Origin: Escherichia coli
GTDB lineage: Bacteria > Pseudomonadota > Gammaproteobacteria > Enterobacterales > Enterobacteriaceae
DNA: 64,000 nucleotides
Assembly: GCF_030013205.1 (NCBI RefSeq)
Contig: NZ_CP122648.1
Reading direction: 5' to 3' (one strand)
The position numbers and the translations under genes were made by a program. Under the pieces are notes generated by a model. It had not been told where the DNA came from and ran no database searches. It saw only the letters and a list, made by a program, of their open reading frames with translations. This document shows positions 1,184 to 6,321 of this stretch, piece by piece. The stretch's first letter is position 1. Every line of letters starts with the position of its first letter.

Positions 1184-2113
1184 TCAGTAGTTATGTACTG
1201 AAGGAGGTAATTCTTTATTCTTAAGTCTCATCCATGCAGAAAGATTCGTTGGTCCGCCTGGCTCATTGATATCAACATCTCGTGTGTGGTTGATTAAAAC
1301 GTCTCTCGCCATTCCGATAACATACGAGAATTCATGACCGTAGTCGTAGCATCTGCCGGAATAGTTCGATTGAATTTGTTTTAGCGCCGGATACAGTTCG
1401 CGGAATAATGCCTGTGAGCGGTTGGCATAATCCCATAACCATACAAGGCTGTTTGCTTCTTTTGCAGAAAGCTCGTTGGTTTTCTTCTCTTGTTTGCCAA
1501 TGAACTCACCTTCAAGTGGAACTCGAGCTGCAAGTGATAGTGCTTCGGTAAACTGCTCCTCACTGATTTCTTTGTACGAACATCCAAAATGGGATTTCAG
1601 TGACGACCACATGGTGATCATCGCCTTAGCCTGTTTTTCTTTTGGCAGAGACTGACCGCGACTCATGACGAGTTGTTTAATGGCTTCCTGCTGTTCAGTG
1701 GTGATTTTACCCGGCAACGCCTTTTTAGCTTTGCGTGGGTTAACTACATGGCCTTTAGTCCAGTATTCGTAGAGCACATCGTCACACTCTTCCTGATACT
1801 GGATTACCTTGTCGCGGATTTCAGGGCGTACTTTGTTAGGGCTAATGGTTTGCAGCCAACCTGCAAGTTTGCGAAGTGCCAAACAAATAATCTCACGGCG
1901 CTGTTCATCACCTGAAAGCTGCATTGTGATTTTCACAATGGAGGTTTTAAACCGCTGCTTCATTTTCGTAAACTGTGAAGCCCAATCCATACCCATACCT
2001 TCAACGATAGGTTTCATTGGGGTGTACGGCTCACCGTTGTGATTGACGACATAAAGCTCTGCGCCGTGGAATGGCACGTTGATAGTAGATACTGCTGTTG
2101 CTATACTTTTCAT
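1184..2113 (-). CDS. ant: Phage antirepressor (Ant-like)
   Basis: 309-aa ORF immediately downstream of the arc-like gene, in the position of P22 ant; N-terminus [47 protein letters not shown] resembles the AntA antirepressor family as recalled. Confidence 0.75.
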
Positions 2114-2179
2114 GTCAGTTTTTCCTCAAAATTTACTGGCGATTTAAGCCCGAGCTACTCGCAATAGCTTGGGCTTTAC

Positions 2180-2326
2180 TCATTCTGGACAAACAATTCC
2201 ATCCTTAGCTACTGACTCCTTTAGTCTCCTCAATACCTCATTACTGAACGACCGATCATCCTTTTTCGCGGACTGCTCCAAAGCCTTTTCCAGCCATTCT
2301 GGCATCCTTAATGTCTTAACTTTCAT
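2180..2326 (-). CDS. arc: Arc-like ribbon-helix-helix repressor, 48 aa (not in ORF track)
   Basis: Translated by hand: MKVKTLRMPEWLEKALEQSAKKDDRSFSNEVLRRLKESVAKDGIVCPE, with AAGGAG RBS 5 nt upstream. Sits between the divergent mnt-like gene and ant as in P22 immI. Confidence 0.7.
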   Translation of the reverse strand: MKVKTLRMPEWLEKALEQSAKKDDRSFSNEVLRRLKESVAKDGIVCPE

Positions 2327-2430
2327 TTTTGCTCCTTTGTATGTGGTACGCATACATAGTATTTAGGTACGCATTGATAGTCAATAGATACCTACATATC
2401 CTGTGGTAAAAAATTATTCAGGATGCGCCG

Positions 2431-2682
2431 ATGTCTGATCGTAAGTACAAAAACCCTCAAGTGAATCTGAGGCTTCCTGTAGAGATAAAGGAACGTCTTA
2501 TTGAACTGGCTGAGGCTAATTCTCGTTCATTAAATGCTGAGATGGTCGCAGCACTTGAAGCATGGACCGAAAAAAACAAACACATTCAAGCACTAGATCT
2601 TGCAACTATAGCATCGCGACTGATAGAGCTTGAGCATGATGTTGAGAAGTTAAAATGCATGCATGGCAATGGTGAAAAATGA
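2431..2682 (+). CDS. mnt: Mnt-like ribbon-helix-helix repressor
   Basis: 83 aa; N-terminal NLRLPVEIKERLIELAEANSRSLNAEMVAAL resembles the recalled P22 Mnt RHH motif; divergent from arc-ant. Confidence 0.7.
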   Translation: MSDRKYKNPQVNLRLPVEIKERLIELAEANSRSLNAEMVAALEAWTEKNKHIQALDLATIASRLIELEHDVEKLKCMHGNGEK

Positions 2683-2996
2683 AACGTATCGCTATCCTAT
2701 TGCTCCTGTGTCTCTCGAGCATAGCTAACGCAGAAACAAAATCAGACGATAGCAGTTTTGATGAAATACAAGGCCTCATGATAGCTTCGAAAATGGCTGG
2801 TATGTGTGGTGCAATCAAACAAATGGCAATATTCCAAGAATCTACAAACATGCCGGGTGGGAATGAATTCTTGCAGAGATTCCTTACTACAGAGCAAGCA
2901 AGGCTTGGGATGACTCCGCAGCAATTTCTTGAAGCATGTCAGAAATCAATCTCTATTTATACCACCTATTACAATATGAGCTCTGAGAAAAAATAG
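2679..2996 (+). CDS. Secreted protein of unknown function (moron)
   Basis: 105 aa with a signal peptide MKRIAILLLLCLSSIANA. Its ATG overlaps the mnt stop (ATGA). Confidence 0.55.
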   Translation: MKRIAILLLLCLSSIANAETKSDDSSFDEIQGLMIASKMAGMCGAIKQMAIFQESTNMPGGNEFLQRFLTTEQARLGMTPQQFLEACQKSISIYTTYYNMSSEKK

Positions 2997-3005
2997 ACTA
3001 GGATT

Positions 3006-3191
3006 TCAACAACTTCCGCGTCCCTGAGTAATTCTGTCGCGGATTTGCTTCTTACGGTGATTTAAGCTGGAGAGTTTGGCTTCTGCTTCTGATATTTGCG
3101 CATCCAGATCTTTAAGTTCAAGCTCTGAAAGTCGCTGGTCAAGCAGGGTTTGGTTTAACTCAATGTTGTTCAGACGTTCTTCTATAGTCAT
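3006..3191 (-). CDS. Small coiled-coil protein, hypothetical
   Basis: 61-aa ORF with AAGGT RBS; Leu/Glu heptad-rich sequence. Confidence 0.35.
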   Translation of the reverse strand: MTIEERLNNIELNQTLLDQRLSELELKDLDAQISEAEAKLSSLNHRKKQIRDRITQGRGSC

Positions 3192-3216: not shown

Positions 3217-3441
3217 ATGATTTCTGCTATTTTATCGGTGCTGCTAGCGTCATTATTCATCGGAGTGGTGTTGATCTCCCCGATGCCAATAATATCAATA
3301 TTATTCATCTTGATGATCGGCTGGTTGTGGCTTAAAAAGGCAAGAAACGATTATTTTTTATCCATAAGAGATAAGCAATTAGAGCTTTTCCGCTTGGGGT
3401 ACACTGGCGACTTGCCATTCTTAACATACCAAAAAAAGTAA
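3217..3441 (+). CDS. Small membrane protein (2 predicted TM helices), hypothetical
   Basis: 74 aa, hydrophobic N-terminal two thirds and basic tail; GGGAG RBS; followed by a terminator hairpin. Confidence 0.5.
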   Translation: MISAILSVLLASLFIGVVLISPMPIISILFILMIGWLWLKKARNDYFLSIRDKQLELFRLGYTGDLPFLTYQKK

Positions 3442-3447
3442 TAATCA

Positions 3448-3470
3448 AGCCGGTTCACTCCGGCTTTTTG
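3448..3470 (+). terminator. Intrinsic terminator after the 74-aa membrane protein gene
   Basis: Hairpin AGCCGG-TTCACT-CCGGCT followed by TTTTT. Confidence 0.5.
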
Positions 3471-3850: not shown

Positions 3851-4039
3851 GTGAAGAAAAAATTTGTAAACGTTGCAAAGTGCGCAATTTTTATATTTTT
3901 TATGACCTTTTACGGATTTAGTGCCGGAGAAGGTTTCGATCGTGATGCCAATGCATTCAGTTTCTTTTGTCTGTCTATAGTGGTCATAATTGTATGGGTG
4001 GAATTAAAGCAAACATTGTTTCATGTGCTAGGGAAATAA
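3851..4039 (+). CDS. Small membrane protein (about 62 aa, GTG start), hypothetical
   Basis: Strong RBS AAGGAGG 5 nt before GTG; two hydrophobic segments (AIFIFFMTFYGF, FFCLSIVVIIVWV); AT-rich. It is the 3' part of track ORF 3635..4039. Confidence 0.4.
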   Translation: MKKKFVNVAKCAIFIFFMTFYGFSAGEGFDRDANAFSFFCLSIVVIIVWVELKQTLFHVLGK

Positions 4040-4056: not shown

Positions 4057-6321
4057 TTACTTCTGGTTATCATCACTGTTCATCCAGTACATGATGCCTA
4101 GCCTTGATATGGTTTTCTTATCTGATTCTGGAAGTGAGTTGTAAAACGAGCGCCAAGCAGAAGAGCGTCTTACAGTTGTATCAACGATGCTTTCTGGTGC
4201 TTGTTTTACTGCCAGCCTTGCTGCTTTCTGGAATTCTGGTGAGCTAATTAGCTTTTCTGCAGATTCAATTGATTCAGCGCCGCCCATCGCCCTGATTTTG
4301 CTGGCGACTTTTGCCCCAATTTCTGACCCAGCAACAGCACCTACTGCACTGAACGGTCCTGACACAGTTGAACCAACCGCAGTGCCAATGCGTTGGGCAT
4401 GGTTAGCAACAAATTCATTTGCCGCAGTGACGCGATTAAACCGTTTGACGAACTCGTTTAGTCTTCCTGTAGTTATCTCGTAAGATTTTGCGTCTTTGAT
4501 AGCCTTTGCGACCTTATATACATCGTTCAGACCTGACATAGTCTCTTTTGGTAAATGTCGGGCAAGATTGCGCATCTGCCCGTTTGCTAACATGTTTTGA
4601 TACCAGTCAGCAAACCCTGCAGGATTAAAATCAGCGCCACGTTTTCCGTTCGAAAGCATATCCCGAAGACCTGTTCCCAGTAGCTCGGTTCTTAGCTTCC
4701 TGGACGGCGTGTTTTGCATCAATTCACGAAATCCTTTGGCATCGCCTTTCGACATTGCCTGTAGTGCTGTAGTTGCTTTGCGAGAAACATCACCGTTCAG
4801 CGTTCTGCCAGTTAGATTAATCATTTGCTCTTCCATGCTTTTTCGCATCTGAACAAGCCTCTGAGCAACTTCAAAATCACGTAATGCATTTGTCTCTGAC
4901 AGCGCCGCCTTTTGATCATCGGCGAGCGAACCGTAAAGCCTCGATAAAGCAGCGCGATCAGCATCTTTATATGGTCCAGAATTCTTATGAAGTGCATCAC
5001 CAACAAGTCGTCGTTGCTTATTGAGATTTGCATAAGTTAATGCGCCGTTCTTGCCTGGATTAATTGCCCGAAAGACTCTCTTTTCAATAGGGTCAAGGTT
5101 TTTCATCCCGCCAAGATCTTCTGCCACCTGTTTGAGCATTGACCTTGTTGATGGCGCATCAATTTTTGCACCTGCAGGCATCGCCTTTTCAACATTGCGA
5201 TAAAGCTGGTCGCTTCGTTTCATCAGCGCAGACATTCTTCCATTGACCGTATCAATAAACTTGTCGCTCATACCAAGAGCATCTTTTGCACCGGAAACGC
5301 GATCAATTATCTCCCCCGCGCCCTGTGCTAGCTGCCTGATTGCTTCATTTTCCTGCACCTGTAGAGCAGAACCCGCACGGGACTTGATTGCTTGCTCAAC
5401 TGCCTTGTATTGCTCGTTCCCGGAAAAGTGTGAAGGGAGTAATGAATCAACATTAAGCCTTTCAGCAGACTCCAGAACTTCAGCCTGAGGATTGATATCT
5501 AGTTCATCAAGCGATGAAGCGAGATTTGGCCTTTTTTGTGCTGCTACTGTGCGAACGACTTCCTCTGGGTTCCTCGTCGCAGGAGTCATTGGTACACCTT
5601 GTGCTGCTCTTGCCTCTGCGGCATGAACCGCAGGATTTGTTGCCTCTGCGGCATCACCGGAGAATGGTGATGTTTCTGTTGGCGCAGTGGTCGCTCTCTG
5701 TGCAGATGTTTTATTGCCACTAATTATATTTGATGCACCACGAACACCACGGGTAACGCCATTTATCAGGCCATGCGTAGCAATGTTAAGTCCGGCATTA
5801 ATAGCGGCATTTTCGGCAAAATCACCCTCCTGATTTGCAGCATCAGCAAGAGAACCTGCAATCATGTTTCCTGCGGAACCGATGTCTCCTGCGAGCTTTG
5901 CTGGCGCTCCAGCAACTTTTGCCGCTGTGCCAATTGGCAGGAGATACCCACCAATTGTTTCACCGGCTTGCGCCCAAGGGTCTGTCGGTCGATCGACAGG
6001 GCGATAAACATCATCCAAAACCTTGGGGCCACCAAGCCCCTGGCTGATTGCATTAATCAGACTTGCGCCACCCTGCAATACGTCAAATGGTATGTTTACC
6101 AGACCACGACCAGCCTGTTCTGCAATTTGCCCTGCGCTTTGACCACCAGTGAGCCAGTCAGTAGCTTTTCCCACCAGAGATTGTTCTTCTGGCTGCGATT
6201 GGTTTTGAGTGGATTGATCACCAGAAGACAGCATCTGAGCAATGCGACGTGCTCCCTCAGTATCGCCGGCAGCATCAGCATTCCTTAACGCCGTCATCAA
6301 CTGTTCACGACTATAGGCCAT
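4057..6321 (-). CDS. DNA ejection/transfer protein (P22 gp16-like by synteny)
   Basis: 754-aa ORF directly downstream of the gp20-like gene; Gly/Ala-rich segments. Confidence 0.7.

Follow-up and report, generated by a model that had tools for sequence, protein, structure and literature searches.

The stretch of DNA analysed here (the window) comprises 64,000 nucleotides (nt) of an Escherichia coli contig (NZ_CP122648.1, assembly GCF_030013205.1) and opens within the tailspike gene of a prophage of the P22-like (Lederbergvirus) type; in the chromosome of E. coli ETEC4079, an identical one adjoins bioA/ybhB. A complete immI region of the P22 type, with the layout of annotated P22, lies at 1184-2682, and the end of its mnt-like repressor gene overlaps the start of orf105, a gene for a 105-amino-acid (aa) protein with a predicted signal peptide. 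The region was named the 'ant moron' by Casjens and colleagues (PMC2629481). As a type, with its lysogen-expressed accessory genes and superinfection exclusion, it is well known; the orf105 family is not. We combined comparisons of sequence, gene order and predicted structure across this family, and tentatively propose that orf105 encodes a periplasmic protein that protects the lysogen. The features on which the argument draws are the following, with coordinates and strand in the window.

1184-2113, minus strand: ant antirepressor gene (PF10547 and PF10548)
2114-2180, plus strand: sar-like antisense RNA between arc and ant (Rfam RF00262, E 0.004), at the position of P22 sar but scoring 29.3 bits, below the Rfam gathering score of 43
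2180-2353, minus strand: arc-like repressor gene (PF03869, E 2e-5), called at 2180-2326 by the NCBI Prokaryotic Genome Annotation Pipeline (PGAP)
2356-2402: overlapping divergent promoter-like sites from a promoter scan, Pmnt-like at 2374-2402 on the plus strand and Pant-like at 2384-2356 on the minus strand
2360-2398: 39-bp near-palindrome, a probable operator (inverted repeat; layout as Pmnt, Pant and operators of P22)
2431-2682, plus strand: mnt-like repressor gene, 83 aa, with an Arc/ribbon-helix-helix (RHH) N-terminus and a coiled C-terminus (PF03869, E 3e-10)
2671-2674, plus strand: Shine-Dalgarno (SD)-like GGTG in the last mnt codons (from the sequence)
2679-2682, plus strand: ATGA start/stop overlap of mnt and orf105 (from the sequence; kept in IMG/VR loci, a Vibrio prophage and E. 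coli genomes)
2679-2996, plus strand: orf105 coding sequence, 105 aa, stop codon included (list of open reading frames (ORFs); PGAP WP_000820796.1 at the same coordinates)
2679-2732, plus strand: part of orf105 coding for the predicted signal peptide, residues 1-18 (MKRIAILLLLCLSSIANA), with a predicted cut at ANA↓E (sequence features)
2733-2993, plus strand: mature domain, 87 aa, 9.8 kDa, isoelectric point ~5, three predicted helices (AlphaFold2 model and conservation table)
3006-3191, minus strand: orf61, a 61-aa coiled-coil protein gene in the direction of the late operon (PHROG 7586)
3217-3441, plus strand: orf74, a 74-aa protein gene with two predicted transmembrane segments (ORF list)
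3447-3466, either strand: bidirectional terminator-like hairpin (terminator scan), counterpart of P22 t_mnt
3851-4039, plus strand: sieA slot of the window prophage, with the SD AAGGAGGT and a GTG, then a 62-aa ORF with two predicted transmembrane segments (sequence and four-way alignment)

The orf105 gene is constrained, with a ratio of non-synonymous to synonymous substitution rates (dN/dS) of 0.16 against a 72%-identical allele. Its product matches PHROG 19844 over its whole length (E 1.1e-69, positions 1-105 of 105), a group without an assigned function, so that full membership adds no mechanism. A word-indexed search returned 11 close clusters, whereas an exhaustive profile search of 1.84 billion representatives recovered 261 proteins at E <= 1e-3 (178 at E <= 1e-10); family members are nearly all 97-125 aa long. 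A second profile search gave 297 clusters, of which the named ones are all 'hypothetical' and none has a Pfam domain. The hosts comprise E. coli, Salmonella, Citrobacter, Yersinia, Vibrio, Pseudomonas, Methylophaga, Luteimonas, Nitrosomonas, Burkholderiales, Sulfurimonas and Deferrisomatales. Among 5,426 complete E. coli genomes, 53 (~1%) carry the gene, each as a single chromosomal copy, 35 of them at a nucleotide identity of at least 95% and the other 18, including O104:H4 2011C-3493, at ~76%. O104:H4 outbreak strains are among the carriers. No published paper was found for the orf105 accessions or the PHROG identifier. On this comparative evidence, orf105 is a true moron (accessory gene) within the P22-type ant moron and is under purifying selection. 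Two alleles in the family (P0006 and P0010) are chimeric, joining a Kapi1-type N-terminal third to a C-terminal part of the window type or of the 72% type, which points to recombination inside the gene.

The preliminary description of this DNA had placed the orf105 start codon over the mnt stop codon, and this was borne out at the exact coordinates given (2679-2996, plus strand, 105 aa). The ATG (2679-2681) lies over the mnt TGA (2680-2682) in an AAATGA junction, an overlap of 4 nt. A mis-called mnt stop is ruled out: PGAP gives the same two coordinates in ETEC4079, the 83-aa Mnt-like protein can be aligned over its full length with the Mnt of P22 and with further Mnt alleles, and it matches PF03869 (the PGAP label is 'Arc family DNA-binding protein'). 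Overlaps of 4 nt are common in bacterial operons and have little meaning alone. The arrangement recurs, a point that the description had proposed to check in other P22-like prophages: in 22 of the 39 IMG/VR loci with a family member, this gene follows mnt immediately and overlaps it by the same 4 nt (12 with the window allele, 10 with the 72% allele). Their upstream Mnt proteins include, besides the window type, those of loci L005 and L008 and the P22 type in L012, with identities of ~29-35% to the window Mnt. A P22-like prophage of Vibrio fluvialis has a fifth Mnt allele followed, at the same overlap, by a 45%-identical homologue. In E. coli, 30/30 among the matches listed (of 53 genomes) touch a coding sequence of the Arc family. 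The junction sequences themselves differ (GGTGAAAAATGAAACG; AAGGATGCAAAATGAAACG; AAGGATAGAAAATGAAGAA), yet all share one geometry, an SD-like AAGG or GGTG followed at equal distance by AAATGA, which favours selection for the arrangement itself over plain inheritance of a single junction. Across mnt alleles and genera, the conservation of the overlap, as judged from these alignments, exceeds chance.

The co-expression with mnt that had been suggested is likewise supported by anatomy and comparison, namely the internal SD-like GGTG, the lack of intervening motifs and the conserved overlap. A consensus motif scan found neither a promoter nor a terminator separating the two genes, and the hairpin at 3447-3466 is the first plus-strand terminator downstream of orf105; the match between window and P22 starts at 3434 and maps onto the annotated t_mnt. 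The predicted transcription unit would thus consist of mnt, orf105, the antisense of orf61, orf74 and this terminator. Within it, translational coupling of orf105 to mnt is plausible from the layout of the junction.

Other phages fill the same position differently. The Mnt of P22 has a different end without an overlap, and orf59a follows after ~100 nt; Kapi1_062 has an AAATGA junction with mnt identical to that of orf105 and uses the same ATG, but this opens an unrelated 69-aa cytoplasmic ORF. Both orf59a and Kapi1_062 lie, like orf105, between mnt and t_mnt; unlike orf105, they have no signal peptides, and their sequences are unrelated to it. Because the occupants after mnt are unrelated, the position is best described as a cargo slot and not as the site of a fixed gene, and from these comparisons the end of such mnt alleles is a translational-coupling socket with exchangeable cargo. 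Kapi1_062 (L001:3306-3515) itself recurs in eight other Kapi1-type loci. The recurrent association with Mnt-type genes, in P22-like as well as lambda-like prophages, might also reflect a role in the phage cycle or the immI circuit, for instance as a periplasmic induction sensor or a lysis-timing factor, with the link to mnt then concerning regulation and not the timing of expression. We regard this as very improbable: Mnt, Arc and Ant are cytoplasmic proteins, but the orf105 product is predicted to be exported; in Kapi1 the slot coupled to mnt holds the unrelated cytoplasmic ORF; and many family members have neither Mnt nor a phage nearby.

That the protein is secreted, as the preliminary description had it, is well supported by its sequence and by the family. 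The n-region MKR precedes a 13-residue hydrophobic core (IAILLLLCLSSIA, Kyte-Doolittle values up to 3.6) and an AXA-type site, ANA↓E, at residues 16-18, as expected of a substrate of Sec and signal peptidase I (SPase I). A charged n-region and a hydrophobic core are present in 124/132 complete family N-termini (94%); the N-terminal sequence itself is not conserved, but its design is. For Kapi1_059, a homologue with 47% identity, the database record carries the DeepTMHMM note 'signal 1-22, outside 23-103'. Export via Sec/SPase I to the periplasm is therefore a well-supported prediction. A lipoprotein was considered and rejected, as orf105 has no match to the lipobox [LVI][ASTVI][GAS]C; a loosened pattern matched 7/132 family members, orf105 not among them.

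The mature part is hydrophilic (grand average of hydropathy (GRAVY) -0.44) and was modelled as a soluble three-helix bundle. The AlphaFold2 model, built from a 134-sequence alignment (predicted local distance difference test (pLDDT) 91.9), replaced an earlier one from 11 close sequences (pLDDT 70.8). Near-invariant residues in the family are K38, G41, C43, G44, F52, Q53, T56, G61, F64, R67, F68, E72, R75 and C87. Both cysteines (Cys43 and Cys87) are kept in 131-132 of 133 family sequences and, being near-invariant in an exported protein, probably form a disulfide. The search for a relative of assigned function, by homology and by structure, came back empty: orf105 had no match in Pfam, NCBIfam, PADLOC or a PDB sequence-profile search, and Foldseek of the model against PDB and BFVD gave only E values above 0.6. 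The family thus has no characterised member, curated family or recognisable fold relative.

Could the ORF be spurious or decaying, and the ATGA overlap accidental? Overlaps of this length are indeed frequent, and chance ORFs abound in this AT-rich region. The dN/dS of 0.16, the 261 family representatives with their near-invariant motifs, the confident model (pLDDT 91.9) and a junction kept across alleles and genera already refute such an origin, and its probability is negligible.

A second placement of the family links it to sieA. SieA is a prophage-expressed inner-membrane protein of 164 aa that blocks DNA injection via the ejection proteins gp16 and gp20, and it is present in only 22 of 66 P22-like phages (PMC10883804). 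The branch of the orf105 family with 47% identity, which comprises Kapi1 and eleven IMG/VR loci, lacks the coupling to mnt and adjoins gene 16 instead. DNA alignment showed that the window, P22 and L030 (Kapi1-type) share the region that holds the annotated PsieA in P22, and the junction CAAAACTAAGGAGGTTGGTGTG is common to all four aligned sequences (window, P22, Kapi1 and L030). What follows the GTG of this junction differs: sieA in P22, the family member in Kapi1 and L030, and the 62-aa ORF in the window. By this alignment, the family member of the sister branch is interchangeable with sieA at the sieA junction, and the family, taken as a whole, is present in each of the two lysogen-type expression slots that the ant moron has. 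P22-type sieA was found in none of the 39 family-bearing loci (tblastn with P22 SieA matched P22 only), a search that SieA types B and C might escape. The 62-aa ORF of the window (3851-4039) has a GTG start and two hydrophobic segments (MKKKFVNVAKCAIFIFF...), is without a PGAP coding sequence, and is also present in L003, L009, L011 and L013.

Despite these shared positions, orf105, as compared with P22 SieA, is not a member of the SieA family by either homology or predicted location. Like SieA, it maps to the part of the ant moron that gene 16 and mnt delimit (within the gene 16-gene 9 interval of a P22-like prophage), and its expression from the prophage is predicted; its Kapi1-type relatives start at the same SD (AAGGAGGT) and GTG as sieA, behind the PsieA region. 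SieA is an inner-membrane protein of 164 aa, whereas orf105 is predicted to yield a soluble, exported three-helix protein of 87 aa. The two share no sequence similarity and no Pfam or PHROG link, and orf105 in the window would be driven from mnt and not from PsieA.

We propose, with a probability of roughly 0.4, that orf105 encodes a lysogen-made periplasmic protective or exclusion factor that is coupled to mnt and acts in a manner comparable to SieA. Its start is embedded in the end of mnt (internal SD, AAATGA), which would make it part of the Pmnt transcription unit, most likely translated by ribosomes finishing mnt. Pmnt is active in established P22 lysogens, and orf105 should therefore be made in the lysogen. 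The product would be released to the periplasm via Sec/SPase I as an acidic three-helix protein of ~9.8 kDa, with its disulfide oxidised by DsbA, and there may act as a stand-alone binder, without a partner gene, that guards the lysogen against something from outside. In a role like that of sieA, the most likely target would be the step at which superinfecting phages cross the envelope or deliver their DNA; a possible route is binding of a virion peptidoglycan hydrolase or a host periplasmic factor via the K38/Q53/T56/R67/E72/R75 surface and the MPGG loop. By position, context and precedent, a protective role is likely. The exclusion idea is strengthened by the sister branch, since this holds the expression slot of sieA.

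Precedents for the general design exist among other phages. Glo of Vibrio phage K139 is, like orf105, a small protein with a signal peptide, its record annotates it as periplasmic and as a phage exclusion protein, and its gene, part of a lysogenic operon, follows the repressor with an overlap of the gene ends, as orf105 does behind mnt. Glo differs in its size (137 aa), its phage (P2-like, Peduoviridae) and its place behind cI-orf2 rather than mnt. Homology between the two was rejected (hhalign probability 12.8%, with only the signal peptide aligned). Spackle (gp61.3) of T4 and Sim of P1 are small periplasmic exclusion proteins exported by signal peptides, and Spackle inhibits the virion lysozyme; they share with orf105 the general design of a small, exported, periplasmic protein directed against incoming phage. 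Structure searches gave no match linking orf105 to Spackle or Sim.

The contexts of more distant members carry the argument beyond P22-like prophages. Lysogenic wiring elsewhere supports a protective factor: in L047 the family gene lies just downstream of a CI-type repressor, and in lambda-like tail operons it follows longer Mnt-like genes within ant modules (Yersinia L058 and IMG/VR L026-L028). The latter module (L058:3469-6869 and L026-L028) is immI-like, is inserted within the tail-gene region, and encodes a long Mnt-like RHH protein along with the family member and antirepressors of the Bro-N/ORF6N type. A mobile, defence-like distribution points the same way. In Methylophaga (L054:5022-8700) the family gene stands in an apparent integron cassette array next to an integron-type integrase, with intergenic attC-like ends (...AACAAG...GGCGTTA...) between small unrelated genes; in P. 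nitroreducens it lies in an island with genes of a cyclic-oligonucleotide-based anti-phage signalling system (CBASS); and in Pseudomonas prophages it is a moron beside CsrA, a toxin-antitoxin pair and Ivy. Family genes are also present in integrase/AlpA islands. A conserved partner gene was sought among the neighbours in 12 diverse contexts and none was found, the neighbours sharing no homology; as the neighbours are not conserved, the protein appears to work alone.

Several of these settings would also suit a periplasmic immunity or inhibitor protein, an orphan protective gene directed against a non-phage attack (a lysozyme, a peptidoglycan hydrolase, or an effector of the type VI secretion system (T6SS), Rhs or bacteriocin kind). 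Family members stand alone in the integron cassette, in defence or mobile islands and at chromosomal sites, and the Pseudomonas moron island is shared with the lysozyme inhibitor Ivy. Upstream of one member (L055:1-7220), at a distance of ~1.2 kb, are toxin genes of the SpvB/TcdB/RHS kind together with an orphan Rhs C-terminal toxin tip, a setting that may be that of an orphan immunity gene, although it is a single case. The deep conservation of polar residues across phyla implies a conserved target, and a periplasmic location together with a probable disulfide is typical of such inhibitors. Even so, we hold this explanation to be rather unlikely: no Pfam or NCBIfam family and no solved structure is similar, no toxin gene directly adjoins the family gene in any context examined, and the strongest positional signal (the mnt coupling and the sieA slot) is specific to phages. 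The proposed protective factor shades into this alternative where its target is the active site of a peptidoglycan hydrolase or a host factor.

A number of results weigh against the proposed lysogen-made exclusion factor coupled to mnt. The promoter scan sites are no more numerous than expected by chance (3 found versus 4.7 expected). The RNA hairpin over the SD and ATG in the minimum-free-energy fold is no stabler than those of shuffled sequences (z -0.11), leaving obligatory coupling plausible but unproven. There is no likeness in sequence or fold to SieA, Glo or any solved structure, so that the function is argued from position. Copies of orf105 that are 100% identical stand beside ejection proteins with identities of 27-100% (gp16) and 37-100% (gp20), and the conserved polar residues persist across phyla; together, this suggests a conserved target and not gp16 and gp20, the targets of SieA. 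Without a satellite, lysogens of Kapi1, which carry a homologue, have incomplete protection against Kapi1 (PMC11773190), a weak argument against strong self-exclusion by that homologue. Lastly, two family members lie at ordinary-looking chromosomal sites. A more ambitious version of the proposal, which we consider doubtful, would make orf105 the founding and experimentally tractable representative of a family of soluble defence proteins that act in the periplasm, are widespread, and share a small, disulfide-bonded helical fold not seen before. Such a family could stand in for SieA, would also travel as an integron cassette or defence-island gene, and would act on a conserved envelope-crossing step (e.g. 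a virion peptidoglycan hydrolase or a host periplasmic factor) and not on the variable ejection proteins.

Predicted expression in the lysogen and predicted export would also be compatible with a lysogenic-conversion or fitness factor that alters the lysogen envelope (such as the structure or length of its O-antigen, its barrier function, or colonisation). Kapi1 alters the O-antigen of its host, and the four candidate genes tested for this were negative (hyp5, a second coding sequence chosen by a targeted homology search, hyp24 and hyp25; PMC8787464). None of the four comes from the region between immI and gene 16, where Kapi1_059 lies, and that region is packed with small lipoproteins, secreted proteins and membrane proteins. 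Against this, the product is a helical protein of 9.8 kDa without enzyme-like features, the family extends to taxa of very different envelopes (Sulfurimonas, Nitrosomonas and Deferrisomatales), and the prophages of its hosts carry unrelated tailspikes, which makes envelope conversion an improbable role.

The surroundings of orf105 also show how variable this part of the prophage is. The interval from mnt to gene 16 is a hot spot for small envelope proteins (lipoproteins, secreted and membrane proteins). Convergent with orf105, with stops 9 nt apart, orf61 has a weak XhlA-like match and is 93-98% conserved in most related loci, whatever gene precedes it. The orf74 gene belongs to the same predicted unit from Pmnt to the terminator as orf105, is found together with it in some loci only, and gave no family match. 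In loci with the 72% allele (L016-L025 and L014), a 161-aa predicted lipoprotein (MKKSLLIIPLLLAGC...; e.g. L017:4529-5014), without a Pfam match, is encoded 26 nt after the homologue on the same strand, and other loci have a PEGA-like lipoprotein on the opposite strand. Farther downstream, the ejection-protein gene at the gp16 position (4057-6321, minus strand) is an intact 754-aa ORF without a Pfam domain; the PGAP call covers just an internal fragment of it, labelled a pseudogene ('lytic transglycosylase domain-containing protein, incomplete'). The adjoining 461-aa protein is a clear P22 gp20 (Inj_translocase).

A moron without an assigned function at this site will not surprise a specialist; the coupling socket, the swap at the sieA slot and the breadth of the family make this one a good and cheap target for experiments. 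About one third of P22-like phages carry sieA, and the orf105 family is a concrete candidate for what fills the region in the rest. The conserved mnt junction suggests that phages reuse a ready-made coupling socket to plug cargo genes into the lysogenic programme. Should orf105 indeed block phage entry or another periplasmic attack, the family would represent a new kind of soluble defence module in the periplasm, with a fold that is new as well, and would offer a simple system of a single gene in which to follow the passage of short-tailed phages through the periplasm.

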